Source of the DNA: a virus
DNA: 64,000 nt
Virus record (IMG/VR): IMGVR_UViG_3300012642_000011
Coordinates: 256,001-320,000 of that record
Direction: 5' to 3' (one strand)
Part shown: positions 1-64,000 of the stretch, in pieces
How positions within the stretch are numbered: the first letter of the stretch is position 1
Layout: every line of letters begins with the position of its first letter
Program-made: the position numbers and the translations under genes
The notes under the pieces: model-generated
The model's database searches: none
What the model was told of the DNA's origin: nothing
Seen by the model: only the letters and a program-made list of their open reading frames with translations

Positions 1-156
1 TGGGTTTGTTTCCCTCTGCCGTGCTGATGGAATAAATCTAACACACCAGACGCTCCACGGTCAACCCGAAACGGCAGATTCGAGGAACTTTTTCTTGATG
101 TGCAGGGACGCTCCACTATGGCGACAAGTGAGAGTAAGAATCAGTTGCACATTCAA

Positions 157-165
157 GGGGACACA
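157..165 (+). repeat. GGGGACACA intergenic motif (one of about 75, all on the + strand)
   Basis: Exact 9-mer followed by an A/T-rich tail. Confidence 0.8.
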
Positions 166-202
166 GGATTCGTATTTTATAGTGACGCTGGATACACAAA
201 GC

Positions 203-236
203 CGCCCCAGCGATCATCGTGACCACTGGGGCGGCG
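203..236 (-). terminator. GC-rich hairpin (GCCGCCCCAG...CTGGGGCGGC) at the stop of 246..413
   Basis: 10-bp perfect stem. Confidence 0.5.
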
Positions 237-245
237 AGGTGGATC

Positions 246-413
246 ACCAACCGGCGTTGATCGCCTGTCGCTTGTTGGCGGAGCGGGTGCCCTTGCGCGA
301 CTTCACCGTGTGGCGCTGGGCGGCGGAGGAACGTCGCAGTTCCATCATCGCGTCGTAGCAGGCGCGGTTGCCGTTGTTGGCCGCGTTCTTGATCTTCTTG
401 TTCTTCGCCATGA
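246..413 (-). CDS. small basic protein, 55 aa (MAKNKKIKNAANNGNRACYDAMMELRRSS...)
   Basis: Manual translation. Below the 60-aa ORF-track cutoff. RBS CTCAAGGAGAGAAC 7 nt before ATG, conserved promoter/leader upstream (414-500), GC hairpin 203-236 at stop. Confidence 0.5.
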
Positions 414-597
414 TGTTCTCTCCTTGAGAGTTGTGGGGTTTGGCTCTTCCTCGCCCCTGTTGTCTCCTACTCTACACGATGAGACGCTCCATGTCAAATC
501 ATTCTCGGAACTTCTTTGGTTGAGGAGAAGACGTAGCGTTTATTGCGCTCTGGGGGTTCAGTGCGTGCTTCTGTCACATGCTGACGGGGCAACTTGA

Positions 598-606
598 GGG
601 GACACA
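598..606 (+). repeat. GGGGACACA intergenic motif
   Basis: GGGGACACAATGATAC. Downstream of a leftward gene. Confidence 0.8.
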
Positions 607-671
607 ATGATACTGCATTGTCAAACAACAAGCCCGACACCCTGATGAGTGCCGGGCTTGTTGTTGTGGAT

Positions 672-938
672 TCAGAGCAGGCCCATGAGCATGTAGTTCT
701 CGATGTGGCGGCGCACGTTGAGCGCGTGCTTCAGATCGTTTCGCGCGGCCTCATGGTCGAACCCCACGCTCATTGCGAGCATGCCGTAGAACGTGCGGAT
801 GACATCATTGACGTGCCCCAGCATCTCGTTCATCTGCTTGACCGTGAGATTATCGAGGATGCTGGTGGCGTCCTCATCATCGGTGAAAGAACCGAGATCG
901 TAGTAGGCGTTCAAGTTCTCGCCGGTCAGTTGCATCAT
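672..938 (-). CDS. hypothetical protein 88 aa
   Basis: ORF track. RBS GAAGGAGAGTCACC before ATGATG. Hairpin terminator 620-660 downstream. Confidence 0.6.
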   Translation of the reverse strand: MMQLTGENLNAYYDLGSFTDDEDATSILDNLTVKQMNEMLGHVNDVIRTFYGMLAMSVGFDHEAARNDLKHALNVRRHIENYMLMGLL

Positions 939-1124
939 GGTGACTCTCCTTCAGAGTGAGTGAAGACTTGGTTGTCTTCGTTGTTGATTTGATCCTAAGG
1001 CATGCAGCATCAGCGCGTCAAGCCCAGTGGAAGATTTTTTCGCATGATGTTACAAGCGGCAGGAGAGGGACACAAGTCTGCTGTATGCCGCATTCTCCCT
1101 GAAGTCAGAGATCTGCGGTACCTA

Positions 1125-2978: not shown

Positions 2979-3497
2979 ATGAGCACGAAGAAATCAAAGC
3001 GACTGGCGTACATTCTGCGTCACGATCCGGCATCTGCGAACACCACTGCCAGTGAGCAGGGTTGGGTCAGTGTGTCGGATATCATGCGTGCTCTCAACGT
3101 CACCATGTCTCAGTTGCAGGTCATCGTGAGCGAGGACAACAAGGGTCGCTACGAGTTCTCTGCAGACAATGAGATGATCAGAGCAACTCAGGGCCACTCC
3201 TACCCTGTCAACTTGGGATGGGAGAGCGTGCTTCCTCCTGCTATCCTCTACCACGGCACGGCTACGCGATTCGTTGAGTCCATCATGCGTGAGGGTCTGG
3301 TCAAGGGGTCGCGTCAGTGGGTCCACCTGTCTGCTGACACTGCTACAGCCTCGATGGTTGGTTCTCGTCATGGCGAGTTGGTCATCCTTGAGGTGGCAGC
3401 ATCTCGCATGGCAGCGGATGGTCGCTCCTTCTACCGCTCTTCCAACGGCGTGTGGATGGCTGAACATGTCCCTGTGGAGTACATCACCACCCTCTGA
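2979..3497 (+). CDS. kptA: RNA 2'-phosphotransferase, Tpt1/KptA family
   Basis: Motifs LAYILRHDP, RATQGHS, LYHGTA, VHLSAD...RHG..VIL, NGVWM match the KptA/Tpt1 signature along the whole length. Promoter TTGATT-17-TACGAT upstream. Confidence 0.9.
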   Translation: MSTKKSKRLAYILRHDPASANTTASEQGWVSVSDIMRALNVTMSQLQVIVSEDNKGRYEFSADNEMIRATQGHSYPVNLGWESVLPPAILYHGTATRFVESIMREGLVKGSRQWVHLSADTATASMVGSRHGELVILEVAASRMAADGRSFYRSSNGVWMAEHVPVEYITTL

Positions 3498-3580
3498 TAG
3501 CAGAGAATCTTGTGGCACACAGTTGTCACAGGATTCTCTCATGACGGACAGGGGACACAAAAACAGAACAACACCAACCA

Positions 3581-3637: not shown

Positions 3638-3940
3638 TCACAGACCAGAGAGTTCAGACTTGACAGAACACATCCACGACGGGGTGATCTCGTTGATGCT
3701 CTCAACCATGAACTCCTTCTCGTTGAAGGCGTTGATGAAGTTGATCACGTTGTTGAACTTGAAGTAGGTGATGTAGTCATCACCAGAGAGTTCGCCGTTC
3801 TCGATCTTCACGGTCAGACCATTCACCTCGAAGGTGAAGTAGAAGACAGTCATCTCACCAGTGTGCATGCAGAAGTCACAGGTGCCCCAAGTGATGTCCT
3901 CCTGGCTGCTGTCAACGTTCACGATCTTCACGGGGTACAT
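3638..3940 (-). CDS. hypothetical protein 100 aa
   Basis: ORF track. Conserved promoter/leader 3941-4020. Confidence 0.7.
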   Translation of the reverse strand: MYPVKIVNVDSSQEDITWGTCDFCMHTGEMTVFYFTFEVNGLTVKIENGELSGDDYITYFKFNNVINFINAFNEKEFMVESINEITPSWMCSVKSELSGL

Positions 3941-4060
3941 GGTATCTCCTTGTGGAGTAATGGTCTCGGGCTGTTCCCTCGACCTGATGAATCAATAGTA
4001 GCACAGGGGACGCTCCATACGCAACTCCACAACGCGAATAATTTGAGTAGAGTCGTAGCC

Positions 4061-4522
4061 TCACCCCATACGGTAGGAGAAAAGCGTCTCGAAACCCTGT
4101 ACGCCCTCATCATCCACTGTCCCACGGCTTACATGAATCCAGTTAAAAGGCTCATTCTCGCCCTCCATGCTTGCCCCTGTCACATGCGGCAGATAGCCGT
4201 CGCCGTGGTGCTCGGGAACAGCAAGGGACGCTCCACTATCGATAGCGGCGCGCAAAAGATGATCGTGCATAGTGCCGATCTGGTTGCTCTTCAAAACTTC
4301 AATGACGTGAATTGCTTCCCCATCGTCCCCCTGAAACACCTGCTCACCTTGATTAGAAGTGATCACAGGGCCAAAATAGAAACAAGCATTCTTTACTCTG
4401 TCAATGAACTTGTTGACCTGATCCTCTGTGTCAACACGGAAGGCAGGCATCAGTGTCAGATGGAAAACAGATCCTTCACCGTGATCAACAATCACATAGA
4501 TCTTCATGTCCTTATTGTGCAT
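4061..4522 (-). CDS. hypothetical protein about 153 aa (start at MHNKDMKIYVIV)
   Basis: ORF 4061..4660 trimmed to an ATG with RBS AAGGAA. Start uncertain, alternative at 4504. Confidence 0.5.
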   Translation of the reverse strand: MHNKDMKIYVIVDHGEGSVFHLTLMPAFRVDTEDQVNKFIDRVKNACFYFGPVITSNQGEQVFQGDDGEAIHVIEVLKSNQIGTMHDHLLRAAIDSGASLAVPEHHGDGYLPHVTGASMEGENEPFNWIHVSRGTVDDEGVQGFETLFSYRMG

Positions 4523-4656
4523 CTTGGATTCCTTGTCTGAATATGAGTTTGTCAACAATCTATCATGGATGAACGTATAAGACAACCTTGTTTTCAGGCG
4601 AGGTCTCCTTAGGGACACAGGATACTCGTAGATGATCCTTTCCGAAGTCTTGGGGA

Positions 4657-4866: not shown

Positions 4867-5164
4867 GATGCTCTCCTTTTCGTGTTGTCCTTGCCACTAT
4901 GGTAACAGGTTTAAAGGTATTACGGTAGGGGGTACATTCTTTGATTACTGGTAGGTTGCATGAGGGTGAGTCGCCTCTGGATTGTCTGACCTCGACAGAG
5001 GCTCTGTGTGCCCTTCTGACGCCTTCTAACACCCCCATCCCACTGTGAGGCATCAACGGTTGGAACGTTCTTCTACGAGCCGCACAGCCTCGTAGAGCAT
5101 ATATTCTCACTCGTGCGTGCTCACATGAGTGGCTTTGGGTGTCTGATGTTCTCGTGGACCCTTG

Positions 5165-5173
5165 GGGACACAA
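5165..5173 (+). repeat. GGGGACACA intergenic motif
   Basis: GGGGACACAAAATGGTG. Confidence 0.8.
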
Positions 5174-5187
5174 AATGGTGTGAGACG

Positions 5188-5235: not shown

Positions 5236-5475
5236 TCAGGCGAGGTTATCCGGCAGGTCTCCGGTCTCTCGCAGGGAACGCTTCACCGCCGACTTGGCGT
5301 TACGGATGCCAGAGGCGGACTTGGAAGTGGAGGGGCCGACGAACATGCGACCGTTGATGAGGCGGTAGCGGATGTGACCGGAACCCGTCTTGCCCTCCAC
5401 TTCGCCTAGGTTGTTCTTCACGATCCAATCGTGAAGTTCCTTGGCGATCCCCGTTGCTCCGATTCGCTTCCCCAT
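5236..5475 (-). CDS. hypothetical protein 79 aa
   Basis: ORF trimmed to the ATG after the conserved leader CTCAAGGAGAGATC. Conserved-loop terminator hairpin 5188-5228 downstream. Weak, unverified resemblance to HicA/YcfA-like small proteins. Confidence 0.6.
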   Translation of the reverse strand: MGKRIGATGIAKELHDWIVKNNLGEVEGKTGSGHIRYRLINGRMFVGPSTSKSASGIRNAKSAVKRSLRETGDLPDNLA

Positions 5476-5703
5476 GATCTCTCCTTGAGAGTTGCGGTCT
5501 CGGGCTGTTCCCTCGACCTGATGAATCAATAGTACCACAGGGGACGCTCCATCGTCTACTCCGCAGAGAATTTATTTTCAGCACTCTTGGAGGCAGATGG
5601 ACAAGGGGACACAATAATCGTATCCCTCTTGACTAAGAGGACAGGATACAGTTCGGCCCACCATCCTCCCGTGTGTGGGATTCTGGTGGGCCGAACTGTC
5701 TCA

Positions 5704-5913
5704 TCACGCCTTGACGGACTCCCACGTGTTCTCGGAAGTCTTCACCATGGTCATGTCCGTCACGTCCACACCGATGTGCTTGAGGCGATGCACAGCGGCC
5801 TTCTTGGCGATCTCGCGCGGGACGTAGGGGTAGATTGTGGACTCCACGAACTGAGTGCCGTTGTAGACGGTCACGATGTAGTCAACGCCGTTCTTGGTCA
5901 GGACTGCCTTCAT
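5704..5913 (-). CDS. hypothetical protein 69 aa
   Basis: Conserved leader and promoter (5975-6004). Terminator hairpin 5655-5698. Confidence 0.7.
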   Translation of the reverse strand: MKAVLTKNGVDYIVTVYNGTQFVESTIYPYVPREIAKKAAVHRLKHIGVDVTDMTMVKTSENTWESVKA

Positions 5914-5974
5914 GATGCTCTCTCCTTGAGAGTAGTAGGGATTACTCTGTGTGCTCTCCCTTGCTGATGAATTA

Positions 5975-6004
5975 ATAGTAGCACAGGGGGACGCTCCATG
6001 TCAA
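5975..6004 (-). promoter_or_regulatory. conserved promoter TTGACA-TGGAGCGTCCCCCTGTGC-TACTAT, leader variant 2
   Basis: Perfect -35 and a near-consensus -10 with an 18-nt conserved spacer. Drives 5704..5913. Confidence 0.7.
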
Positions 6005-6183
6005 TCCGAAGAAGCGTCGATCTTCTGCTTTTCGTTTGAGCGATTGCGGATCATCAAGGTGAAAGCATGGAAGAAGCACGCGGTGGCTACAGTGATCCCT
6101 GCCATCAGCGTTCTAATGGGAGAGGGGTCCGTGACAGCAGTGAATACATTAAAGACCGCAAATAATATGATGATATCCTTCAT
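6001..6183 (-). CDS. small hydrophobic (membrane) protein 60 aa
   Basis: RBS AAGGAAATC before ATG. Hydrophobic core. Confidence 0.5.
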   Translation of the reverse strand: MKDIIILFAVFNVFTAVTDPSPIRTLMAGITVATACFFHAFTLMIRNRSNEKQKIDASSD

Positions 6184-6377: not shown

Positions 6378-6707
6378 ATGTCGCTTCTTATCGAGAACAT
6401 GATCAACAGCCGCGAACTGTCGCCTGCTGCGCGGGACATGTCTGCTGCTGATGTCCTTCAGGCTTGGGTTGAGGCCAATGCAGCGGAGACTGTGAAGTTG
6501 GAGACCCTCGGAGTCGAGGAGGAGTCCCTGATTGGTGTGCTGGCTTTCGAGCGTGATGGGGACGCTCTGAGCGTCCTCCTGAACACTTTCGACAACCCTG
6601 TGGAGTCGAGCATGGAGATCTTCCTGATCGATCCCATGATGAAGGGCAAGGGTCAGTATGACTCGCAGGGTGTGTGGAAGGGTGCCAAGATGCTCGTGGC
6701 GCTGTGA
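6378..6707 (+). CDS. hypothetical protein 109 aa
   Basis: RBS AAAGGGAGTCGCC before ATG. Strong intrinsic terminator 6712-6760 (hairpin plus TTTTTG). Confidence 0.65.
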   Translation: MSLLIENMINSRELSPAARDMSAADVLQAWVEANAAETVKLETLGVEEESLIGVLAFERDGDALSVLLNTFDNPVESSMEIFLIDPMMKGKGQYDSQGVWKGAKMLVAL

Positions 6708-6878
6708 TCATAGGGTGAGGGTGATGGGAGGAATCCTGTCACCCTCACTTTTTGAGTGAGTATGGGGACACAATATACATGACATGGTTGTGATGTATGT
6801 CTGATGTGTTGTCGTATGTGTAACACTCAACCCCCTGCCGTTCTGTACTGATGCTGGCAGGGGGTTGAGTGGATCATC

Positions 6879-7136: not shown

Positions 7137-7255
7137 GATACTCTCCTAAGGTTGAGTGTTTAGGATTGATTACTGGACTTCATAGTGAAACCATAGCAGA
7201 GGGACGTGACAGGTGCAACACGTAATCCCGATTTCGGTGTTGCGCCTGTTGAGAT

Positions 7256-7522: not shown

Positions 7523-7555
7523 TTCATGGTCTCCTGAATCCGTTATGGGGACGTG

Positions 7556-7711
7556 TCACTCTGCGATCAGAGCGTACATGAGAGCGTACATCATGACAGC
7601 ACAGAAGAAACTCAGGACAGCGCCCGTCACAACGTCGAAGCCGTTCTGAGTGGTCACGCACATTGCCATGAAGGCAACCATGGCGCTGAAGACAAGGTTG
7701 AAGACTCGCAT
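7556..7711 (-). CDS. small hydrophobic membrane protein 51 aa
   Basis: ORF 7556..7795 trimmed to the ATG after the conserved leader. Very hydrophobic sequence. Confidence 0.5.
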   Translation of the reverse strand: MRVFNLVFSAMVAFMAMCVTTQNGFDVVTGAVLSFFCAVMMYALMYALIAE

Positions 7712-8061
7712 GATGCTCTCCTTGTGGAGTAGTGGTCTTGGGCTGTTCCCTCGACCTGATGGGATCATCCTATCACAGTGGATTGTCCAGTTCAAGTCAG
7801 GGGTCAGGGGTGGTTAGGGGACACAGGAATCATGTGATGCCCATGCAGCAAGATGCAGTGCTACCTCATGCTGATTGGCTCGTGTTCCATGTGAGCGCAT
7901 AGGTGGATGGTGCTACCGTAGAGTTTCCCTGTGTGGCATGGAGAGGAGGTCAAAAGGGTAGTACCATGACTTGCTTGCCGGTGATTGAAAAAGTCTGATG
8001 TATAGTCATTATTTTTACGATATTTATAGGGACACGTATTGTCTTCAGCGCCAATAAAAGA

Positions 8062-8182: not shown

Positions 8183-8488
8183 TCATACGTTCACGATGGT
8201 GGCGTTCTTCATGTGCTGGTCGTAGGCGTCCACGATGATAGCGGCCAGCTGACCACGCTCGCTCACGTCGTAGCCGTTCTTGATGGCCCACGCTCGGATG
8301 GTGGCCGTGGTGGTCTTGGGGCGGTAGGAGGGGTTCTCGTCACGGAACTGGGCCACGAGATCCTTGGACAGACGACCACGGACGCTGACCTCGATGCCCT
8401 TGGACTTGGCCCACTGGCGGATGTCAGCGGCAGCCGAACGGCCAGCGATGAGGGTCTTGTCCTCGTTGTACTTGCGCTTGGTGGTCAT
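8183..8488 (-). CDS. Lsr2-like DNA-binding protein, two tandem C-terminal-type domains
   Basis: Two copies of the Lsr2 C-terminal motif (IRQWAKSKGIEVSVRGRLSKDLVAQF and IRAWAIKNGYDVSERGQLAAIIVDAY) with the RGR AT-hook-like core. Conserved leader/promoter. Confidence 0.75.
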   Translation of the reverse strand: MTTKRKYNEDKTLIAGRSAAADIRQWAKSKGIEVSVRGRLSKDLVAQFRDENPSYRPKTTTATIRAWAIKNGYDVSERGQLAAIIVDAYDQHMKNATIVNV

Positions 8489-8713
8489 GGTCTCTCCTAG
8501 GAGTAGTGGTTGGTGTTGAGATTGGCCCCTGTGGCCTCGCTGTTTGCTCTCAACCTGATGAATCAATAGTAGCACGGGGGACGCTCCATGTGCAACATGT
8601 GCAGCACGAATAATCTCGGGATAGTCGCAGCCCTCTATTGGATCACGTAAACTCGTGATAGTATGCTCACACATACCTATGGGGACACATAACTTGCTGT
8701 AAATAGTCAGGTA

Positions 8714-8762: not shown

Positions 8763-9488
8763 TCAGGTCGCACAATCGTTTCCGGTCAACTTTGCATAAT
8801 CACACACTTGTGCGTTGCCAGACACTTGTGCATTTCCGGCCACAAATGCACAATCGTACACTTGTGCGTTACCGGACACTTGTGCGCTGTCTGTTACTTC
8901 TGCATCGTCAGATACCTGTGTATTACCAGTCACTTGAGCGTTGTCATAAATAAATGCTTCACCGGATACTCGTGCTTTACCAGACACCCGTGCGTTACCT
9001 GCCACGCGCGAGTTGCCATAAATTCGCGTGTTACCAGACACTCGCGCATTATCGTACACCTCTGCGTTGCCATATACTCGTGCGTTGTCATGCACAAGAG
9101 CGTCATCAAACACGTAAGCGTCGCCGGACACACAAGCGCTACCGTACACCGAAGCATTGCCAAATACCCAAGCGTTCTCGAACACTCGCGCGTTGCCGTA
9201 AACCCGCGAGTCCTCAGTGACGTATATGTTACCAAGCAACTCTGCGTTATCATACGCCTGAGCGTTCTCGTACACCCGAGCGTTATCAGTCACGTGCGCA
9301 TTGCCGTACACCTTCGCCTCATCATTGACCCATGCATTATCTGAGAGATTGTCCATGCTCTCCACATAACCGCCCAGATCCCCAGATTTCACCTCATGAT
9401 CGGGCAGGTCGCGTGTGGCTCGAATACGGTGGAGCGTTCGACCGTTGTAGTGAATCGTTTCATCTGTCAGTTCGTAATTCTTATTCAT
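8763..9488 (-). CDS. hexapeptide-repeat (beta-helix-like) protein with conserved N-terminal domain, paralog 1 of 6
   Basis: N-terminus MNKNYELTDETIHYNGRTLHRIRATRDLP...GDLGG, then about 30 consecutive V-x-[GDE]-[ND]-A-x hexapeptides. RBS CAAGGAGAAATC. Confidence 0.8.
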   Translation of the reverse strand: MNKNYELTDETIHYNGRTLHRIRATRDLPDHEVKSGDLGGYVESMDNLSDNAWVNDEAKVYGNAHVTDNARVYENAQAYDNAELLGNIYVTEDSRVYGNARVFENAWVFGNASVYGSACVSGDAYVFDDALVHDNARVYGNAEVYDNARVSGNTRIYGNSRVAGNARVSGKARVSGEAFIYDNAQVTGNTQVSDDAEVTDSAQVSGNAQVYDCAFVAGNAQVSGNAQVCDYAKLTGNDCAT

Positions 9489-9502
9489 GATTTCTCCTTG
9501 TA

Positions 9503-10258
9503 TTATTTAGTCCAGCGTGCGACACGGGCGCGGCACTGATCAATGACGGATTGGTACTCGGGACGTGCGTCACGAATGATTTCAGGGTCAGTGGTTTCAA
9601 CCCATGAATCCGAGTCGCAGAGGATCTGGTGATCATCAAGAGTGCCTGACTTGCAACCGATATGGAGAACATGATCATCCGTGGTGCGGTGCAGGGTCCA
9701 ATTGAATTGCCGATTGGTGCAGAGTGTGCCGATCATAATATGCTTTTCTTCAGCCACTCGCGCGTACCCAAACACGTGTGCGTTACCAAAAACTCGCGCG
9801 TACCCAAACACCCGTGCGTTACCACACACCCGTGCCCAATTGTACACTTGTGCGTCATCGGACACTTGTGCGTTGTCTGTTACTTCTGCATTCTCAAATA
9901 TGTGTGCCTTACCAGCCACTTGAGCTTTGTCATAAATAAATGCGTCATCGGACACTAGTGCGTCCCCGAACACTTGTGCGTCCCCGAACACTTGTGCGTT
10001 ACCGGACACGCGTGCGTTGCCATATACACGCGCGTCATCGTACACCAAAGCGTTCCCTGACACTCGTGCGTCATCGTACACCATCGCCTCATCAGCGACC
10101 CATGCGCTATCGGAGAGGTTGTCCAGATGTTCCACGAAGCCGCCCAGATCGCCGGGCTTTACAGCGTGGTAGGGTAGTTCTCGTGTTGCACGAATGCGGT
10201 GGAGCGTTCGACCGTCGTAGTGAATCGTTTCATCTGTCAGTTCGAAATGCTTATTCAT
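9503..10258 (-). CDS. hexapeptide-repeat protein paralog 2 (non-repeat C-terminal extension)
   Basis: Same N-terminal domain and hexapeptide repeats. Own promoter TTGCGC-18-TAGGGT. Only 14 nt from the downstream paralog. Confidence 0.8.
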   Translation of the reverse strand: MNKHFELTDETIHYDGRTLHRIRATRELPYHAVKPGDLGGFVEHLDNLSDSAWVADEAMVYDDARVSGNALVYDDARVYGNARVSGNAQVFGDAQVFGDALVSDDAFIYDKAQVAGKAHIFENAEVTDNAQVSDDAQVYNWARVCGNARVFGYARVFGNAHVFGYARVAEEKHIMIGTLCTNRQFNWTLHRTTDDHVLHIGCKSGTLDDHQILCDSDSWVETTDPEIIRDARPEYQSVIDQCRARVARWTK

Positions 10259-10467
10259 GGCGTCTCCTTGAAAATGGTAGGGATTATCTTATCAACGATC
10301 CTATGCTGCCCTTACCCTATCATATGGGACGCTCTATGCGCAACCTATTTCTTGTACTAATTGGGCTATATTGCGACAAGTGATGCCGAAGTTTACACAA
10401 GGGGACACAGTAGCGAAAACAGAGAACGGACAAGGCGACAGTCGATGCCACCTTGTCCGTTCTCTGA

Positions 10468-10779: not shown

Positions 10780-11022
10780 AATCTCTCCTTGAGAGTGGTA
10801 AGGGTCGCTCTGTGTTGCTCTCCCTTGCTGATGAGTCAATAGTAACACGGGGGACGCTCCATGCGCAACCTGACAGCAGAAATAATCTAGGGAGGCTCAC
10901 AACCTCTCGATTGGATCACTTCAATTCGTGATAGTATGCTCACACATACCTATGGGGACACATAACTTGCTGTAAACAGTCAAGTAGCACAGTAGGGATA
11001 CAACTACTGTGCTACTTGGGTT

Positions 11023-53050: not shown

Positions 53051-53195
53051 GTTCTCTCCTTGAGAGTGGTGGTCTTGGGCGGTTCCCTTGACCTGATGCT
53101 CTTACTCTACCACGGGGGACGCTCTACGCGCAAGTGAAAGATTGTGGCCCGCTGATCTCTGAGTCAGCGGGCCACAATCTTTCGTGCTCTTGGGA

Positions 53196-53642: not shown

Positions 53643-53863
53643 GATGTTTCTCCCTGAAAGTAAGTGATTCGCTTGAACCTTTACATGACCTTACTACAGT
53701 GGACGCTCCATTGTCAACTCGATTCTCCATATGGATGATGAATCCGTTGTCGTACCCCCTGTACCGTATGTCCCAGTTCTCATTCTTAAGCAAGGGACAC
53801 GGATTATCGTGCAAGCAGATGGGGGACTGACAGGCGCTACCCATCAATCCCCCGTCTTTTCCA

Positions 53864-54361: not shown

Positions 54362-54447
54362 GGTCTCTCCTTGGGAGTTATGCTCTCAATTGCTCTGATG
54401 CTCCGATTCTACCATGGGGGACGCTCCATGTGCAAACCATTCCTTCA

Positions 54448-54943: not shown

Positions 54944-55102
54944 TTCTTACTCCTTGCCTTGGAAGATGGAATAGTTACACGGCTATTATGCCATATGAGG
55001 CCACAATATTCAACAATAGTATTGGGGACACAAAAATACACTACAGAAAAAGTATAGCAGGGAGACAGGATCACCCGTCTCCCCGCTATGCGATCCCTTA
55101 GA

Positions 55103-55345: not shown

Positions 55346-55437
55346 GTTCTTCTCCATTCAAAGTGATGGGGTCAAGTTCTTCTCAACCCCTGTTGATGGT
55401 CCTACTCTACCACGGGGGACGCTCCATCTACAAGAGA

Positions 55438-56259: not shown

Positions 56260-56268
56260 GGGGACACA
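56260..56268 (+). repeat. GGGGACACA intergenic motif
   Basis: GGGGACACAGAAATAATCTG. Confidence 0.8.
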
Positions 56269-56370
56269 GAAATAATCTGATCATCCTCTTGCTATCCGTG
56301 TTGACCTCTCGTGAAAGATCGTGTAGAGTCGTTCTTGTCAGCAAGACAGAATCACATCTCAAGGAGAATC

Positions 56371-57138
56371 ATGAGCATTTACGAGTGGGAGAGCGGGAAG
56401 ATCGTGCTTCCGACCAAGGACGTTGCGCCCCTGAAGAAGATTCTTCGGGATCAGGTGAACACGTTCCATTCGGATGTTCGCGCCAAGGCTGTGGAGATGC
56501 ACAAGTCTGCAAAGACCACTTCCACTAAGAAGTATGGCGAATTCTTCGGTTTCGACAAGCACTACTATGACGACTCCAAGAACACGATGGTAGAGAACGT
56601 CGCCCGTGACATTCTGAAGGGCATGTGGGAGAACGCGAACGCTGGGCGAGGGACGCTCCATGTTCCCACTGTGGCTGACGTTTCGCGTCATGCTCCCAAG
56701 ATGACGACCAAGGACAATCATTTCCGTGTTCTTGACAATCAGGGTTTTGATGCGGCTCTGATTCACTTCAATGGCCGCATTGTGGAGTGGGCTGTGGAGG
56801 AGAACAACCATGCTGTCGATCATGCGTACAGCGCTCCTCTTGCGCGGTCGCTCTTCAAGTACCTGCATCAGATCGAGTGGACGCGCGGCACTGGTGGTCA
56901 TGGTGTGGGCAACAACGAGATGAATACGGATAGCGATTACGTGGGCGGCGGGGCTAACTACGTTGCCTTCAGTTACGGCCCGCTTGGTGTCGAGGTGCTT
57001 GCACAGGGCGCGCAGATGAGCAAGAAGAAGTACCTCAGCACTCATCTGGACATTGACGAGAAGAAGCACGCTGACAACTCAGGCTACGAGCGCAGTCTGC
57101 CCCTTAACACTCGTCGTCCCTACAACTTCATCTGGTAA
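56371..57138 (+). CDS. hypothetical protein 255 aa
   Basis: RBS CTCAAGGAGAATC. Terminator 57146-57197. Confidence 0.8.
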   Translation: MSIYEWESGKIVLPTKDVAPLKKILRDQVNTFHSDVRAKAVEMHKSAKTTSTKKYGEFFGFDKHYYDDSKNTMVENVARDILKGMWENANAGRGTLHVPTVADVSRHAPKMTTKDNHFRVLDNQGFDAALIHFNGRIVEWAVEENNHAVDHAYSAPLARSLFKYLHQIEWTRGTGGHGVGNNEMNTDSDYVGGGANYVAFSYGPLGVEVLAQGAQMSKKKYLSTHLDIDEKKHADNSGYERSLPLNTRRPYNFIW

Positions 57139-57197: not shown

Positions 57198-57211
57198 AGG
57201 GACACAGAATG

Positions 57212-57688
57212 TCATATAGGTTTGAGAACACCTGTTACCATTGCCATGAGGGAGAAATCCGCATCCTCTTGGTCCTGCTTCATTAAATCTTGCACTGCAA
57301 GGTCGTATTTCTCAATGGCGGCTGAAGTGAGCATGTGATCAATGAAGACGCACTGAGCGTCAAATATCTCATCTCTGTCCGTGAAGAATGCTTTACTCTC
57401 CAAGGCATGCCTCATCAGGTTTTCATCAACCATGTCCAAGTGATTGTGATGTGCAAGGTCAGCCACAAGGTCTGGACGCTCTGTGAGCAGACGGTAGGTT
57501 GCTGGGGGTAGAGTGATCGCGTGAGCAGCTACGTCCGCCCCTAGTCTCTCCACTACGTGATTCAGGTCAGACGGGATTCTGAAAGCAAGTGTGGTCAAGT
57601 CGATGACGTACTTAGGGTCTTCCTGCATAACGAGATGAACTCGCCTGTGAAAATGCTGAGAGTGAGAAGAAGTATATGATTGACTCAC
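57212..57688 (-). CDS. hypothetical protein about 158 aa (GTG start proposed)
   Basis: No RBS at the track start 57712. GTG at 57688 is preceded by GGAAGGGAGG. Confidence 0.55.
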   Translation of the reverse strand: MSQSYTSSHSQHFHRRVHLVMQEDPKYVIDLTTLAFRIPSDLNHVVERLGADVAAHAITLPPATYRLLTERPDLVADLAHHNHLDMVDENLMRHALESKAFFTDRDEIFDAQCVFIDHMLTSAAIEKYDLAVQDLMKQDQEDADFSLMAMVTGVLKPI

Positions 57689-57818
57689 TGCGCCTCCCTT
57701 CCGTGCTAACATGTCGGCAGGTTAAATATCCGCAGAGCATGAAAAGGGACACAGTATGAGTGCATTCTTAGTACTGCAGATGGGAGTGCCTCCTCCATAG
57801 AGACACTCCCATCAATGA

Positions 57819-58445: not shown

Positions 58446-58710
58446 ATGCTCCTTCTTGACGGATTGATCTTGTTGACACCATCATCTCACATGATCAGCA
58501 GCATGTCAACAGTGAAGATTTATTTCACGACACAAGCAGGTCATGAGGCCAATGCGTGCTGTAGGCACTCATTGGGGACACAAGATTTGAAAGAGGAGAT
58601 TCAACCTCAACCTCAACGATGATGCGGGGTACTGTTGTACGATCTGCACATCTGATACTTCAGGGGCCGTGACATTTGAAATCCGTCCCCCTTTCTGCTA
58701 TTCTGACCAC

Positions 58711-59325
58711 ATGAAGAAGACGATCATGCTCGTAGACATTGATGGCACGCTTGCCATCAACAATACGGCAGAGAGCAAGCCTCTCAACGGATTCAATAGC
58801 GAATGGGCAGAGATGACCATTTCCCGACTGGATCACCCTGAGATGTTCACAGGCGCAGTAGAGCAGTTGGCAAGCATCAATCGCGTCCTTGCCGACGATG
58901 CCAAGATCGAGGTGGCTGTGGACCTGACCATGCTCTCTGCCTTCTCGCAGATCGCTTCCCGCCCCCATGTGGAGTGTAAGTGGCTGACCATGTGGGAAGA
59001 CAAGGCTGTGGACTTGTTCGCTCCGTTCACGGGACTTGGTGAGGAATGGGACGTGCTGAAGAAGGGGGACGCTCCAAGAGATTGGAAACTGAGCGTTCTG
59101 GATCAGGTGGCTGGTAAGAACCCCGATACTCAGATCATCTTCCTTGACGATGACGTAGCCGTGCTCCCCTCTCATTTCGCCGCTTTGGAGGAGATCGTGG
59201 AGTCCCGTGAGAACGTGTTCGTGGTGGTTCCTACTCCTCACGTGGGCTTGACGGCTGTAGAGGTAGGATGGATTGGTTCTGTCGTGGACAATCCGAATAT
59301 GGTGAATGCACTGCTGTGTGAATGA
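58711..59325 (+). CDS. HAD-superfamily phosphatase-like protein
   Basis: Motif I MLVDIDGTLA. Later IIFLDDD. Start uncertain (track 58669, weak RBS). Confidence 0.65.
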   Translation: MKKTIMLVDIDGTLAINNTAESKPLNGFNSEWAEMTISRLDHPEMFTGAVEQLASINRVLADDAKIEVAVDLTMLSAFSQIASRPHVECKWLTMWEDKAVDLFAPFTGLGEEWDVLKKGDAPRDWKLSVLDQVAGKNPDTQIIFLDDDVAVLPSHFAALEEIVESRENVFVVVPTPHVGLTAVEVGWIGSVVDNPNMVNALLCE

Positions 59326-59445
59326 TGCTGGTGAGGTGGGACCAGATCTAAAAGGTCATACCTATCGTGAATGAGGGACACAAGTTTTCATGTAAACAGA
59401 AAGCGGGAGTGAGCGTTGTTCTCACTCCCGCTTTCTAAACCACTG

Positions 59446-59757: not shown

Positions 59758-59845
59758 TTTTCTCTCCCTTGAAAGATGTGGTGTTGCTTTCAGTAGTAAG
59801 CATACCTCATGCAAGGGTGCTTTGCAAGCAGAGGGGACGCTCCAT

Positions 59846-60091: not shown

Positions 60092-60280
60092 GGAGGTGCC
60101 TTTCAATGAGGAGTCTCTTCTATCGTTATCAGTCTATGCTACCATAACGGCCAAGCATCTTTGCGAGAACGCGGCATGGGGAATAGGGGGACACAGGATT
60201 GATCAGTGTTTCATGTCTGGGATGCTGAAGGGGGCAGGAGAGGTGTTCTACTCTCCTGCCCCTTCGCCGCAGACGACTAC

Positions 60281-60637: not shown

Positions 60638-60817
60638 TTTCTCTCCTGTGGGAATCGGATCTTTACTAACAGGATCTACTATACACCAGATCACTGCACT
60701 TAACAACCTATAGGGACGCTCCGCATGAAGACGAATCACTATCGTCATGATGGTTGACAATATGGAGCCTATGTGAGATATTGAAAGTGTCCTGACAACG
60801 AAAGCAAAGGGAAGACC

Positions 60818-61093: not shown

Positions 61094-61102
61094 GGGGACA
61101 CA
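61094..61102 (+). repeat. GGGGACACA intergenic motif
   Basis: GGGGACACAATATTCAG. Confidence 0.8.
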
Positions 61103-61170
61103 ATATTCAGAACTAAAGCAAAAAGGAGAGGGAGACCATGATGCTATGGTCTCCCTCTCGCGTTTAGCGA

Positions 61171-61830
61171 TCACACAGCGGTCAGAAGGGACTGCACAAC
61201 GTCAGCGTTCGTGATCACGGGGGCAGGGGTGACAGGGAAGGGCTTCACCTTAGTCTTGGTGTGTGCCGACTGGTAGGCGAGGATCACCTGATTACGCAGC
61301 CGCCCAGTGTCAGCCACGGTGTACCCGTTGTCCTTGGCCCATGCGCGAATCTTGGCGGCGTTACGGTTCTTCCCCTTCTTGCTGGGCGACTTGATGAAGC
61401 GATCATCCTTGAAACCGTAAGCCTGAGCGTAGGCGATCAAGAGATCATTGGACAGGCGACCACGATCAGCGGTGGTGTAACCGTTCTCCTTGCCCCATTC
61501 ACGAATCAGAACGGAGTCAGGGACATGCTTGGTCTTGGTGGTCTTGACCTTCTCTTCCTTGGTGTTCAGGACATGGATGCGACCACCAGTGATGCTCTCG
61601 TCAACGGGGCAACCGTGAGCGACGTAGGACTCGACCACGGAGCGGTGCAGACGGCCACGGGTGCCGGTCTGGATACCCTGAGACTTGGCCCATGCCCGCA
61701 CCTGAACGGCGTTGTACGCGACGCCCTCCTTGTCTGCATACGTGGTGATCTGGGAGATCAGGTTGTGGAACTTGGCATCCACCTTCTCATCGGAAATGGA
61801 GTAGGTGGTGTTGTTGATGGTGATGTTCAC
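61171..61830 (-). CDS. Lsr2-like protein with three tandem DNA-binding domains (GTG start)
   Basis: Three repeats: VQVRAWAKSQGIQTGTRGRL, LIREWGKENGYTTADRGRL, AKIRAWAKDNGYTVADTGRL. RBS AAAGGATCATC before GTG. Terminator 61118-61160. Confidence 0.8.
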   Translation of the reverse strand: MNITINNTTYSISDEKVDAKFHNLISQITTYADKEGVAYNAVQVRAWAKSQGIQTGTRGRLHRSVVESYVAHGCPVDESITGGRIHVLNTKEEKVKTTKTKHVPDSVLIREWGKENGYTTADRGRLSNDLLIAYAQAYGFKDDRFIKSPSKKGKNRNAAKIRAWAKDNGYTVADTGRLRNQVILAYQSAHTKTKVKPFPVTPAPVITNADVVQSLLTAV

Positions 61831-61995
61831 GATGATCCTTTGTTCGTGTGCTCTGTTGTGTACTGATCCCATCCTATAACACCGGAGAAGTCAATGCAAC
61901 ATGTGATTCCATTGGTGCGTCATCTGTCGTCATATTTAATGGGGACACAGAATGAGAGCATGCGAGCACTTGGTGAGAGTGCTTGCTCATGGTGG

Positions 61996-62157
61996 TTACG
62001 TGTTGGCAACTACCATCATGCGCCCCACAAGGAATGCCCCGATGATAGCGGAGACAATAAGCATCATGGGGTTGAAGGCATTCAGATAGAAAAATGCGGC
62101 CACACCGATGGCGTTCAAGGTGACGAAGAGAATGTAAAGGAGGGAAATAAATCGCAT
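61996..62157 (-). CDS. small membrane protein 53 aa
   Basis: ORF trimmed to the ATG with RBS AAGAAAGATCATC. Confidence 0.5.
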   Translation of the reverse strand: MRFISLLYILFVTLNAIGVAAFFYLNAFNPMMLIVSAIIGAFLVGRMMVVANT

Positions 62158-62248
62158 GATGATCTTTCTTACAAGCAATGGAAGTGTACTTCCACAGTAT
62201 AGCACAAAACTCCCCTCCGTGTACAAACGGAGGGGAGTTTTTAGCGGG

Positions 62249-62476
62249 TCAGTGATCTGCGATCTGCATTACCACGGCCCAATGGTCGCCAGCATCCTGT
62301 GCTGACCACGACTGGACGTACTGGTTGAGCTTTCGCTTGGGGAGGTTGGGGATCTGGTTGTTGGTGAACATGTCAGTGGCAATCTTTGCTGCCTCATGCT
62401 TGTTCGCCACGTCCATGGGCGAACCGTTCTTTCGAATGGTCTTGCCCACGTTGTGCTTGATGATGATGTTCGTCAT
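62249..62476 (-). CDS. hypothetical protein 75 aa
   Basis: RBS AAAGGAGGACATC. Hairpin 62207-62244. Confidence 0.75.
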   Translation of the reverse strand: MTNIIIKHNVGKTIRKNGSPMDVANKHEAAKIATDMFTNNQIPNLPKRKLNQYVQSWSAQDAGDHWAVVMQIADH

Positions 62477-62622
62477 GATGTCCTCCTTTGACTTCTATAT
62501 TATACCATGTGGACGCTCCATACACAAGTGCCGACTCCACATGTATAATCTTGCAATGGTGTACATATAACGAGAAAGAGTGATCCCCCTACACCATTCA
62601 GGCGAGGGGGATCACTCAGGAC

Positions 62623-62970
62623 TCACTTGTTGTGAGCGGCGCGGTAACGCTTCACGGTGTCACGGGACAGACGGCCACGCTTGCCCTTCTCGATCAGGCC
62701 CTTCTCCTCAGCCCACGCGCGGATCTCGGCGGCGGAGTCGGAGACCACAACGGTATCCTTATCGGTGAACTGGTACTTCTTGCGGATCTTGTTCTTCAGG
62801 ATCTTCTCGGCGTTCTCAGCCACGAACTTGGGGTCCTGGACCTTGGTGGCGGACTTGGCGTTCAGCGGGACGATGTAGATACCCTTGTTCGGGATCAGCA
62901 CCTCCACGGGCTTGGCACCCATCTGCTTGGTGATCGCGTCCTGCAGGAACTTCTTCTGGGTCTTGGTCAT
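62623..62970 (-). CDS. lsr2: Lsr2-like nucleoid-associated protein
   Basis: N-terminus [37 protein letters not shown]-terminus AAEIRAWAEEKGLIEKGKRGRLSRDTVKRYRAAHNK. Paralog of 18996..19337. RBS GAAAGGAAGCATC. Confidence 0.85.
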   Translation of the reverse strand: MTKTQKKFLQDAITKQMGAKPVEVLIPNKGIYIVPLNAKSATKVQDPKFVAENAEKILKNKIRKKYQFTDKDTVVVSDSAAEIRAWAEEKGLIEKGKRGRLSRDTVKRYRAAHNK

Positions 62971-63683
62971 GATGCTTCCTTTCAAAGTGATCATTGTGAT
63001 CAGGATGTGTGTTCTTCTGTCTTGCTGGTATCCATGTTGCCACATTATTTCTTCCGTGTCAACTATGGATCTGCATTTTTCTCAAGGTTCCTTCTGCTTC
63101 TCTGTCGGCTTCCGTTGCCTTGATGAGTACATCATGGCACACCTTTAATCCCCGTGTCAACACTTTTGCCAAAATTTTCTCAAAAATCCTCTGACATGGG
63201 TGTTTACAAGAGAATCAGGGGGCTGAACAAAGGGACGCTCCACGAACTCACACCTGCTGCCTGTTGTAATAATTCTTATATAAGCCTTATATAAGCAAAA
63301 AGAAAGCATACAGGGACGCTCCACATACATAGCCTACAGGTCTGCAATCCTTCCTCTGCGACAAGAGAAGAGCGTTCAGAACACCTCTGCATGGGGACGC
63401 TCCACACATGCGGGATGAGGAGGTCACATCAGTGTGCTTGCTGGACACGCTGTACGCCGTTCTGAGGGCATGAAGGAGTGGCAAGCCATCAATGTTCGTA
63501 CCAGACCTAGAAACGCCCCACAGGGGCACACAGCCTCTCGTGGAAGGGCGTACAGCCGCCTAAGGTGACTTGTGAATCACTCCACGGTCATGGTTTCCCT
63601 GTAGGGACACAGAATGACGAAACATAGACAAAGCACCCTGTGTTCTCCCCGTCAAGAGAGCACAGGGTGCTTCAATGTGTCTA

Positions 63684-64000
63684 TCAGAAATCAGCCTGAT
63701 TCAGAACAGCCTTGACGTTGGCCCGATCCTTCTCAAAAGTGAGAGTACGATCAGCGTTATCGATCAGGGACTGGATCACGTCCTGCTTGGTTTCGTACCC
63801 GTCCTCGATCTCATCCTCGTCCACGTCGTCAAAGAACGTCCACGCATAACCGTTCTTGGTGCTCAGGATAGCATAGCGGCCCATGCCGTCGAAATCGTGC
63901 TCCCACAGAAGAGTGCCCTCAATCTGCTCCCACTTGTGCTTGCGCAGAGTATCCATGACAGGCGTGTAGAGCGCGGTGAAGGCATCCCCGTCAATGACCT
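63684..64000 (-). CDS. hypothetical protein, possibly 5'-truncated at the window edge
   Basis: ORF track gives 63684..63956. The frame stays open upstream to the window end and no RBS precedes the 63956 ATG. Terminator 63625-63680. Confidence 0.5.
   Translation of the reverse strand, partial: VIDGDAFTALYTPVMDTLRKHKWEQIEGTLLWEHDFDGMGRYAILSTKNGYAWTFFDDVDEDEIEDGYETKQDVIQSLIDNADRTLTFEKDRANVKAVLNQADF

Follow-up and report, generated by a model that had tools for sequence, protein, structure and literature searches.

Strand-locked GGGAC-type motifs in a 64-kb stretch of viral DNA: possible asymmetric binding sites at transcription-unit boundaries and early promoters

Which process reads a short DNA signal that sits at the borders of genes, but always on the same strand regardless of the direction in which these genes are transcribed? 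This question is raised by a stretch of 64,000 nucleotides (nt) of viral DNA, positions 256,001-320,000 of the record IMGVR_UViG_3300012642_000011 (hereafter the window), in which GGGAC-type motifs are found on the + strand of most intergenic gaps. The window contains about 110 small genes, around 70% of which point leftward; rightward blocks extend over approximately 22.4-27.5 kb and 31.4-35.2 kb and are accompanied by scattered single rightward genes, which agrees with the switches in gene orientation described in the original prediction, a reading of this DNA from its letters alone. The analysis suggests, tentatively, that the motifs are asymmetric binding sites of a phage protein, which would mark transcription-unit boundaries and early promoters. 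For this analysis, the window was extended by 9.3 kb on the left (L034) and by 9.0 kb on the right (L037), resulting in 82.3 kb of DNA.

The sites fall into three families, namely A (rGGGACACA-RDAT), B (rGGGACGCTCCA; GGGGACGCTCCA) and C (rGGGAC-RTG-ACA; GGGGACGTGACA), all of which share one 12-mer layout, rGGGAC-N5-A, followed by a pyrimidine. The window holds 71 A, 54 B and 14 C sites, which amounts to about 140 sites per 64 kb. It had been reported that a 9-mer occurs about 75 times without a single reverse-complement copy. This number is right for the 8-mer core of family A, GGGACACA, which is present 71 times on the + strand and is absent from the - strand of the window; a reverse copy does occur just outside, at window coordinate -2387, and the ratio over 82.3 kb is 85 to 1. 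The A 9-mer GGGGACACA has 51 copies on the + strand and none on the opposite one (0.89 expected from shuffles), and the bias persists when one mismatch is allowed (25 variants on + and 5 on -). The sequence variants of the 9-mer noticed earlier are real as well: the C variant GGACGTGACA occurs in a ratio of 11:0, and the looser pattern yields the 14 C sites, all of them on the + strand. Family B is a large second family, which was overlooked by the earlier reader. Its core GGACGCTC(CA) is present 54 times on the + strand and once on the - strand of the window (68:1 over 82 kb). The sole minus-strand GGACGCTC is located at 6569-6576 and forms a near-palindrome with the + copy at 6558-6569.

The position profile of family A reads W-R-GGGACACA-R-D-A-T, with no conservation outside. 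The trinucleotide following GGGAC on the + strand (199 copies) is ACA in 85, GCT in 52 and GTG in 16 cases; the 41 minus-strand copies of GGGAC continue without preference. The bias is not explained by an avoidance of type III or type IIS restriction sites (GGGAC), as these 41 minus-strand copies stay in place and it reflects enrichment rather than depletion. A scan of all k-mers revealed no further strongly polar family; apart from the Shine-Dalgarno complement, which follows the direction of the genes, and one coding repeat, it gave no other signal. Sixteen copies of CCGGACAC were likewise discarded as a motif, being 18-nt coding repeats in five beta-solenoid paralogs. A full-text literature search on the motif strings returned nothing relevant. 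Neighbouring A sites are 806 nt apart in the median and 965 nt on average (coefficient of variation 0.65), where about 850 bp had been estimated and likened to Okazaki fragments. This likeness does not persist: the spacing mirrors gene size because there is one site per small gene, and adding B and C to A gives no more regularity than adding randomly placed sites does (P = 0.52). Even spacing and the filling of motif-poor gaps by B and C were therefore rejected.

All 71 A copies of the window lie outside called genes. Thirty-five are located between two leftward genes (-/-), 14 between convergent genes (+/-), 13 between two rightward genes (+/+) and eight in -/+ gaps, and the remaining one precedes the first called gene at the left edge. 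When only gaps of at least 100 nt are considered, A is present in 13 of 15 +/+, 11 of 12 +/-, 34 of 48 -/- and 8 of 17 -/+ gaps. The statement that each intergenic region carries one copy is thus correct for about 72% of the sizeable gaps with A alone and for 90% with the sister motifs, and not for the rest. Some + strand GGGAC-type site is found in 83 of the 92 gaps of at least 100 nt, and C replaces A in gaps that lack A, as with the C site at 27609-27620 and the C-like site (GGGGACATGACA) at 27951-27962.

Family B occupies a different position. Promoters and terminators were assigned by consensus match only; by this measure, leftward genes mostly possess near-consensus sigma70-like promoters with an extended -10 element, a conserved leader and an AAGGAG ribosome-binding site. 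The minus strand of approximately 30 leftward, host sigma-A-like promoters reads TTGACA-TGGAGCGTCCCC-nnTGn-TAGAGT, so that the spacer beside the -35 element is taken up by B, which holds a fixed place between the -35 and the extended -10. In the window, such spacer copies are located at 1523-1534, 2086-2097, 4006-4017, 5540-5551, 5987-5998, 8577-8588, 10850-10861, 17111-17122, 19413-19424, 22257-22268, 29986-29997, 47080-47091, 49827-49838, 53115-53126, 53699-53710, 54417-54428, 55415-55426 and 62509-62520. The B-bearing spacer is common to promoters with two different leader families, ...CAGGTCGAGGGAACAGCCCAAGACCAC... and ...CAGCAAGGGAGAGCACACAGAGTAATCCC..., which are highly conserved 5' leaders of about 60 nt between the extended -10 and AAGGAG; examples are found at 1457-1545, 3940-4030, 5475-5560 and 5913-6010, and the leaders recur on both strands. 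A typical leftward unit lies at 5473-5617 and consists, read on the + strand, of the ATG at 5475 (minus strand), the Shine-Dalgarno sequence, the conserved leader, the extended -10, the spacer with B at 5540-5551, the -35, the A site at 5605-5617 and the terminator of the upstream gene. The leftward promoter/leader family is also present on the + strand, at the genes 24927, 31422 and 17993. In two of these three copies, the reverse-complement B is missing from the spacer, and the third contains only a degenerate version (GGGGACGCTTCA, 17907-17918, - strand). Instead, an A or B site is present on the + strand, 18-52 nt ahead of the -35; B sites upstream of rightward promoters are located at 17870-17881 and 31288-31299.

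The position of A is tied to the neighbouring transcription units. A lies outside the terminator hairpins, at a distance of 12-23 nt where the gene is leftward and of 5-27 nt where it is rightward; hence, the DNA at A is not normally transcribed, and A occupies the non-transcribed spacer of most transcription units. In at least eight rightward units, A ends 31-33 nt before the -35 element, as seen for the sites at 22334-22346, 22817-22829 and 23182-23194 (31 nt), at 25426-25438, 34293-34305 and 56260-56272 (32 nt) and at 52024-52036 (33 nt), and in one unit C (45657-45668) ends 30 nt before it. This distance is fixed, whereas that to the preceding hairpin varies between 5 and 27 nt. An example of a rightward unit is found on the + strand at 34293-34406, where A is followed after 32 nt by the -35 TTGACA (34334), the -10 TAATAT (to 34362) and the ATG at 34404. 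The A core of the rightward units lies near -72 and typically 99-119 nt from the ATG, farther than the 45-100 nt upstream of starts that had been given for the rightward block. In leftward regions, the motif had been placed about 90 nt beyond the -35; the measured distance is variable and ranges from 4 to 124 nt. The spacings on the right-hand side imply that A abuts the edge of the next unit, which is either a rightward promoter or a leftward terminator, and the distance of A to the left-hand unit is more variable than that to the right-hand unit. Two further assignments, A as a variant -35 (GGGACA) and A reversed as a -10, were rejected, the former for want of a partner element at 16-19 nt and the latter since the would-be -10 does not contain the conserved A.

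The reversed A at window coordinate -2387 follows the same rule. Here, a terminator hairpin is followed by 41 nt, GGGGACACA, 31 nt, the -35-like hexamer TTACAT, a -10-like element and the ATG of a leftward gene, so that the 31-nt spacing to the -35-like hexamer is retained, though the hairpin is 41 nt away. The only reversed A is part of a mirrored promoter unit and has been flipped along with its promoter. It sits in a region that is missing from the relative L288. In the mirrored unit (L034 13325-13402, window approximately -2387 to -2463), the -10-like element lies about 8 nt before the ATG, which suggests that the mRNA is leaderless.

Several B sites are found close to A, with at least 17 A-B pairs 47-103 nt apart. 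Three B copies (RGGGACGCTCCAC) are spaced exactly 81 nt apart at 63231-63242, 63312-63323 and 63393-63404 (63231-63405 overall), within a gap of about 700 nt without a convincing open reading frame (ORF; 62971-63683); AT-rich palindromes (CTTATATAAG twice) are located between the first and the second copy. This triplet looks like an iteron-type binding array, and the region could be an origin or a regulatory locus. A companion element, AATAATCT, displays a 9:1 bias to the + strand and lies 11, 20, 25, 31 or 32 nt downstream of the start of the GGGGAC core, i.e., roughly in helical register (window 8609, 10881, 22354, 24270, 34304, 45682 and 56271); GGGGACACAGAAATAATCT occurs three times.

Codon shuffling was used to assess the sites inside genes; synonymous codons were shuffled in 500 runs, with each protein and the codon usage of its gene preserved. 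Eighteen genic copies of GGACGCTC were observed on the + strand, compared to 2.7 +/- 1.5 expected, and none of the 500 shuffles reached 18; on the minus strand, one copy was observed and 1.6 were expected. The 18 genic B sites are distributed over + genes (8) and - genes (10) and occur in all frames. The + strand excess, combined with a minus strand at expectation, indicates that the strand lock results from one-sided positive selection and not from avoidance. For A, no genic copy was observed and 0.2 were expected, and its intergenic restriction is thus enrichment between genes rather than exclusion from them. Genic B and C sites are about twice as dense in rightward genes (18 in 12.7 kb) as in leftward genes (21 in 29.1 kb; P = 0.037). 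When the third-codon-position skew was split into coding-strand and genome-strand parts, the + strand turned out to be weakly G- and T-rich (GC skew +0.043 +/- 0.019; AT skew -0.046 +/- 0.026).

Related contigs provide a second line of evidence. In the relatives L278-L283, which are 94-97% identical to the window, no substitution is present in the 8-nt core of 12 aligned A copies (about 96 positions), compared to 5.8% difference in other intergenic DNA (P ~0.003 by our own arithmetic). In the more distant L288 (approximately 80-84% identical), two A copies are intact, with 0 changes in 16 positions versus 20% intergenic divergence (P ~0.03, again by our own arithmetic). Changes in A in these relatives are confined to the degenerate flanks, and B is less strictly conserved. 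Judged from these alignments, the A core is under purifying selection. The metagenomic copies that were fetched are about 100% identical to the window and hence give no information on variation. A different picture emerges from the distant relative L040, which shares only FemX with the window (50% amino-acid identity). Its variant motif GGGGACACGATAnTG is present on both strands and follows two divergent gene arms, on + in the leftward-gene arm and on - in the rightward-gene arm. The search of related genomes that had been proposed recovers the motif core in L278-L283 and L288 and a variant without strand lock in L040.

The relatives also differ by whole units. In L282, a different beta-solenoid gene is joined to the 19.4-kb unit, and in L288, about 6 kb is replaced by a 0.5-kb unit; in both cases, A stays with the right-hand unit. 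All three breakpoints in L282 and L288 fall into repeated promoter/leader DNA, with the nearest A 57, 75 and 122 nt away, and A was rejected as the crossover point. Based on this comparison, the conserved leaders appear to be substrates of unit shuffling between strains. This resembles the PeSLs (promoter early stem-loop elements) of T4-type phages, in which small genes each carry an early promoter and a stem-loop and the repeats serve as substrate for shuffling. Unlike PeSLs, which are gene-oriented promoter-terminator repeats, the GGGGAC motifs are a separate element with genome-fixed polarity.

Taken together, the observations point in two directions. The strand lock in every gap type, the selection inside genes of both orientations and the loss of B in flipped promoters point to a DNA-level process of fixed polarity. 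The spacing to rightward promoters, the fixed place of B in the spacer, the presence of about one site per unit, the reversed copy and the flip in L040 point to a protein linked to RNA polymerase. The earlier conclusion that the motif is not a classical gene-oriented promoter or operator consequently stands, as the strand is kept in +/+ and convergent gaps, and so does the independence of its polarity from gene direction as far as the genic B sites and the two + strand promoters without reverse B are concerned. What does not stand is independence of transcription, given the 31-33 nt to rightward -35 elements, the B sites in about 30 leftward spacers and the 12-23 nt to terminators; moreover, a flip with gene orientation, which had been named as the finding that would mark a conventional element, is seen in the sole reversed copy and in the L040 variant.

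The explanation that we tentatively prefer, although it falls well short of being probable, is that A, B and C are recognised by one phage-encoded DNA-binding factor or a small set of related factors, which would organise the transcription units and act with polarity. Bound to B, the factor would occlude the leftward, presumably early, promoters; bound to A, it would separate the units as a boundary or roadblock and also provide rightward promoters with an upstream element near -72. The site is asymmetric and always points in the same direction, and the factor might therefore act only on polymerases moving one way, so that, throughout the region, transcription in the two directions, and possibly replication forks as well, would not be treated alike. 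Such a scheme could work like the operator-plus-stoperator system of cluster A mycobacteriophages, with an orientation that is fixed by the genome and not by the gene. In these actinobacterial phages, dozens of asymmetric 13-mers are bound by an L5 gp71-type repressor; one sub-class is located in early promoters and another in short intergenic spaces, and orientation matters, as in the window (PMC9283540). Stoperator orientation, however, correlates with the direction of transcription (PMC9283540), whereas the sites described here are not flipped for the roughly 30% of rightward genes; only the single reversed copy and the relative L040 comply with the stoperator rule. Further differences are the density of about one site per 0.5-1 kb, the three discrete site classes, the lack of a repressor homologue among the window genes and the nature of the element, a jumbo phage of 332-437 kb that is presumably lytic. 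A conceptual analogue is provided by the polar terminators and fork barriers of ribosomal DNA (rDNA; TTF-I at the Sal box, Reb1, Fob1), in which an asymmetric site acts in one direction and a site lies behind each terminator and upstream of the next promoter. The rDNA systems are eukaryotic, their units are all co-oriented, and there is no sequence or protein relationship to the motifs of the window.

A number of observations weigh against a transcription-organising factor. The orientation of A ignores transcription, and +/+ gaps (13 of 15) and convergent gaps (11 of 12) behave like -/- gaps; a purely local regulatory role does not predict such independence, and the stoperator rule is violated. 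About 45 of the 71 A copies have no adjacent rightward promoter, and the rightward promoters beside A have near-consensus -35 and -10 elements, which leaves no obvious need for an activator. The enrichment of B within ORFs of either orientation is not what operators usually show, and the higher density of genic B and C in rightward genes (P = 0.037) is not expected of a silencer of leftward transcription. The A-B distances show no helical phasing. No candidate DNA-binding protein was found, Pfam and PHROGs being silent for nearly all window genes, and the same two resources returned no repressor with a helix-turn-helix and a stoperator domain. The DNA examined, about 82 of 332-437 kb, represents about a quarter of the genome, and no binding protein, nickase, primase or polymerase that could be linked to the motif was found in this quarter. 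The Lsr2-like paralogs of the window are unlikely to be sequence-specific binders, as the N-terminal part resembles a divergent Lsr2 oligomerisation domain and the C-terminal domains appear to be AT-hook-like.

Strand-specific nicking had been put forward among the original candidates, and it has a documented precedent in the strand-locked, gene-direction-independent motifs of phage tf. A phage nickase would then read rGGGAC-N5-A and cut the + strand, perhaps at the A/Y step between positions 12 and 13. We regard this as the main rival explanation, although a doubtful one: if all nicks are on one strand, the complement stays intact, which would account for the strand lock without extra assumptions, and nicking is the only documented phage phenomenon with the same signature (tf/LUZ24 group, phiKMV/LUZ19, T5). 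The 9-mer TACT/RTGMC of phage tf occurs in 14 copies on the top strand only, despite two convergent transcription units; its one-mismatch variants are all on the motif strand, and related phages possess a slightly different consensus (PMC3517423). The nick motif of LUZ19 was described as 'the only detectable intergenic motif' (PMC3604761). The motifs of the window resemble these systems in that they occupy a single strand irrespective of convergent transcription, in that one-mismatch variants mostly keep to the motif strand and relatives have a variant consensus, and in the intergenic location known from the phiKMV group. One-sided positive selection even inside ORFs, the conserved core and the confinement of A to non-transcribed spacers also fit, as does the rarity of genic B and C where the + strand is the template (P = 0.037), which is compatible with a cost of template-strand nicks. 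The fixed half-site followed by five bases and A/Y is reminiscent of type IIS-derived nickases. The density, in contrast, is 3-10 times that of any known nicked genome: there are 4-14 major sites per 40-120 kb in the known systems and about 140 per 64 kb here (A about one per kb, all families about one per 0.5 kb), with at least 17 A-B pairs only 47-103 nt apart and three B sites 81 nt apart. The known consensus sequences TACT/RTGMC, CGACxxxxxCCTA/CTCCGG and R/GCGCRGG are unrelated, and the known nick sites have no known fixed distance to promoters or position in promoter spacers; neither the 31-33 nt spacing nor B in the spacers nor the near-saturation with one site per unit is predicted by nicking. 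Moreover, A is missing from rightward ORFs, in which a + strand nick would hit the non-template strand, the L040 variant is present on both strands, and no nickase was identified in the examined DNA. Promoters of a phage-specific RNA polymerase or sigma factor, which would all fire rightward and switch the region from leftward to rightward transcription, so that rightward genes are read in sense and leftward (early) genes in antisense, appear unlikely. Phage promoters most commonly show up as a conserved intergenic motif with about one copy per unit, A adjoins the right-hand unit at its left edge (31-33 nt to the -35, 12-23 nt to the terminator), and genic copies are fewer in leftward genes. 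In addition, GGGGACAC (positions 1-8) matches seven of eight bases of the -12 to -5 specificity regions of the SP6 (GGTGACAC) and K11 (GGGCACAC) promoters, and W at position 0 and A at position 12 match their -13 and -1, i.e., the A/T just upstream and the A at the would-be -1. Promoters of the T7 family are conserved over about 23 bp from -17 to +6, are AT-rich from -4 to -1, start with a purine (G) at +1 and face the genes that they serve. The motifs have about 13 informative positions compared to 23 and neither a conserved TATA nor a G at +1: the would-be +1 is T or C in 63 of 85 A and 44 of 52 B sites, the -4 to -1 bases of B are TCCA, and conservation is confined to positions 0-13. The motifs are oriented without regard to gene direction, and about two thirds of the promoters would yield antisense RNA only, as the gene to the right of A is leftward at 47 of the 71 sites. 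No element resembling a -10 or -35 accompanies the motif at a constant distance, the reverse reading THYTGT-GTCCCC does not contain the conserved A of the actinobacterial -10, and no gene for a single-subunit RNA polymerase was found in the accessible 82 kb.

Replication- and recombination-based readings fare less well. That the motifs are priming sites of the lagging strand, with leftward forks and primers that begin with pppAC in the + sense, seems quite unlikely. T7-type primases recognise the trinucleotide 5'-GTC-3', and GTGTC is a genuine T7 site; the minus-strand readings of the three families, TGTGTCCCC, GGAGCGTCCCC and TCACGTCCCC, each contain 5'-GTC-3', and that of A contains GTGTC. 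GGGG|AC is common to the families, so that the putative primer would always begin with AC, in line with the T7/T4 primase rule. Priming would also explain a polarity that is independent of gene direction and reaches into ORFs, and a leftward fork would be co-directional with the roughly 70% leftward genes. Primases, however, normally need three to five bases, which leaves a conserved site of 12-13 nt unexplained, along with the intergenic restriction of A and its fixed promoter distances. The sites are spaced unevenly (their union is as irregular as expected by chance, and gaps are not filled by B and C), the only reversed copy is flipped together with its promoter, and the weak third-codon-position skew (GC +0.043 +/- 0.019), with its G/T-rich + strand, suggests rightward rather than leftward forks. 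Polar signals of the Chi type or of the type of the FtsK-orienting polar sequences (KOPS), which would be read by a helicase-nuclease or a translocase (AdnAB/RecBCD, an FtsK-like pump or the packaging motor), are improbable. They could account for the strong one-strand skew, the G-rich 5' end and the selection of B and C in genes of either direction, and the + strand is weakly leading-strand-like. Chi-like signals had been considered in the original prediction. Motifs of this type would be over-represented with the same skew in the host chromosome, but a host signal received no support, as A and B occur in 0-1 copies, i.e., without enrichment, in host-like Micrococcaceae-type contigs from the same habitats (about 37 kb, 68-71% GC; a small sample, and the host may differ). 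Furthermore, Chi and KOPS copies are scattered over coding and non-coding DNA and keep no set distance to promoters or terminators, whereas 71 of 71 A sites are intergenic and precisely placed relative to both, B and C being those that do occur in ORFs; the sites comprise 12-13 nt in three discrete classes, and their density is far above that of any known orienting signal. Finally, it is highly improbable that the sites are recombination or cassette boundaries, similar to integron attC sites or T4 PeSLs, at which single-gene units are inserted in fixed orientation. Each unit of either orientation does have A on its left edge, the relatives differ by whole units, and A stays with the right-hand unit in L282 and L288. 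The breakpoints at 57, 75 and 122 nt from A, on the other hand, are explained by homologous recombination between repeated promoters, A is not flanked by attC-like or conserved inverted repeats, the B sites within ORFs do not qualify as borders of cassettes, and no recombinase was seen in the examined DNA. The probability that is left belongs to something outside all of these readings.

In its most far-reaching form, the preferred reading of a polar DNA-binding factor can be described as a polar boundary code, a description to which we assign a rather low probability: nearly every single-gene unit, in either orientation, would carry a site of 12-13 nt as a tag, always on one side and on one strand, sister sites would lie in early promoters and ORFs, and one factor could distinguish the direction of polymerases over hundreds of kilobases, be it RNA polymerase, the replisome or both. 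Equally doubtful is whether this amounts to strand-selective control of a whole chromosome arm of a kind that has not been described for any phage. Such a code would match neither the gene-oriented stoperators nor the sparse nicks known from T5, tf and phiKMV. Provided that a polar factor binds the sites, or that they are nicked, they offer a handle on how hundreds of single-gene units on both strands are coordinated in an actinobacterial phage of 330-440 kb; for jumbo phages, next to nothing is known of mechanisms of such coordination. With about 140 sites in 64 kb, a strand bias of at least 50:1, an unsubstituted core and selection inside ORFs, the signal is exceptionally clean, and the finding would extend or limit two poorly understood phenomena, namely strand-specific nicks (T5/tf/phiKMV) and orientation-dependent roadblocks (stoperators). 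The motif is also a compact metagenomic signature for this uncultured phage lineage.

The sites that have been mentioned only as counts are distributed over the entire window, and all of those listed here are on the + strand. Family A is found in the left third at 157-169, 598-610, 1066-1078, 1574-1586, 2154-2166, 2903-2915, 3551-3563, 4611-4623, 5164-5176, 6764-6776, 7817-7829, 8681-8693, 10401-10413, 10954-10966, 12482-12494, 13189-13201, 14218-14230, 15409-15421, 16514-16526, 17189-17201, 17357-17369, 18300-18312, 18913-18925, 19511-19523, 20546-20558 and 21952-21964. It continues at 23828-23840, 24258-24270, 24781-24793, 25994-26006, 26645-26657, 29610-29622, 30046-30058, 31007-31019, 32094-32106, 32981-32993, 33965-33977, 35305-35317, 37531-37543, 37917-37929, 38501-38513, 40774-40786, 41874-41886, 42718-42730, 43240-43252, 44020-44032, 44609-44621, 45091-45103, 46680-46692, 47172-47184, 47905-47917, 48860-48872, 50122-50134, 50997-51009, 55024-55036, 57198-57210, 57745-57757, 58574-58586, 59374-59386, 60187-60199, 61094-61106 (between two convergent terminators), 61941-61953 and 63603-63615. 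Intergenic B sites outside the promoter spacers are located at 104-115, 10325-10336, 17294-17305, 20150-20161, 23874-23885, 37319-37330, 39491-39502, 40321-40332, 50739-50750, 51412-51423, 59833-59844 and 60712-60723. B sites inside ORFs are present at 2407-2418, 4224-4235, 6558-6569, 14572-14583, 32487-32498, 35444-35455, 39962-39973, 42298-42309, 42429-42440, 43812-43823, 46132-46143, 52383-52394, 56649-56660 and 59065-59076; three more lie in the FemX-like ORF (21144-21155, 21224-21235 and 21630-21641), one in a weakly supported ORF (51101-51112) and one in a leftward ORF that is called in L037 and not by our own caller (57472-57483). Family C is intergenic at 7200-7211, 7547-7558, 20043-20054 and 20590-20601, lies about 100 nt upstream of a rightward gene at 29002-29013 and is found inside ORFs at 16153-16164, 25075-25086, 33243-33254, 49113-49124 and 52601-52612, with a C-like site inside the RNA ligase ORF (37006-37017).

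The window looks like a part of an uncultured jumbo phage of a high-GC actinobacterium, present in skin-type metagenomes, as judged from the following comparisons. By exact-protein look-up, its proteins were matched on the 332,269-bp metagenomic contig ENA ERZ27289831 k141_11150, of which the window corresponds to approximately 123.7-59.7 kb, reversed, and on many other contigs, including one of 437,576 bp. The top FemX homologues belong to Micrococcaceae, and related bacterial contigs come from human-skin metagenomes. No cultured relative was found in the phage collection searched. Scans for relatives with the DNA pattern gave only single chance matches in IMG/VR and GTDB genomes and, among the matches listed, in metagenomes of the Joint Genome Institute (JGI). 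Two groups with the RNA ligase, namely Arthrobacter and Microbacterium phages of about 190 kb and L238/L239 (34-37% GC), were set aside, since their organisation is unrelated and they do not contain the motif; the RNA ligase in the record of a Microbacterium foliorum phage (191,968 bp) is 37.5% identical to that of the window. The GC content of the window is 52%. TGA and TCA are about four times more frequent than TAA or TAG in all frames. An alternative genetic code was rejected, as the TGA excess over TAA or TAG is equal in all six frames and reading TGA as a sense codon leads to overlapping ORFs on both strands; the standard code was retained. Genes were called with a self-trained codon model and a ribosome-binding-site score, so that errors are possible for small or overlapping genes; called coding sequence makes up 65% of the window, and the longest gene has at most 435 codons.

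Few genes of the window are recognisable. They encode a FemX-like transferase, an RNA ligase, a Tpt1-like RNA 2'-phosphotransferase, a metallophosphoesterase, a GmrSD/HNH nuclease, five beta-solenoid paralogs and about five Lsr2-like proteins. The beta-solenoid paralogs (YdcK/hexapeptide/bactofilin-like) are adjacent on the minus strand at 8763-14084 and have a coding periodicity of 18 nt; the variant contig L282 has one more paralog, which is linked to another neighbouring unit. At least five Lsr2-like genes (8183-8488, 18996-19337, 61171-61830, 62623-62970 and L034 10989-11486), an unusually large number for a phage, contain one to three copies of the Lsr2 DNA-binding domain each, and several of the proteins possess an N-terminal MTKTQ... 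domain that resembles a divergent Lsr2 oligomerisation domain. An IS605-type TnpB (OrfB/Cas12f-like) gene is located at L034 15891-17102 (window approximately -6163 to -4952), in the largest motif-free interval (3.4 kb) and within the 6-kb segment that is replaced by a 0.5-kb unit in L288. A transfer RNA (tRNA) cluster adjoins the window on the right, and an Rfam search detected only tRNAs. A set of genes with a putative role in RNA repair, situated at 36225-37229 (-), 2979-3497 (+) and 45765-46595 (+), comprises the RNA ligase with a PHA02142 OB domain, the Tpt1/KptA-like 2'-phosphotransferase and the metallophosphoesterase, and at least eight tRNA genes lie just right of the window (L037 91-2561). 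Short palindromes are over-represented in the whole window, with 598 copies of GATC, 589 of CATG and 83 of TGATCA, for which about 16 are expected.

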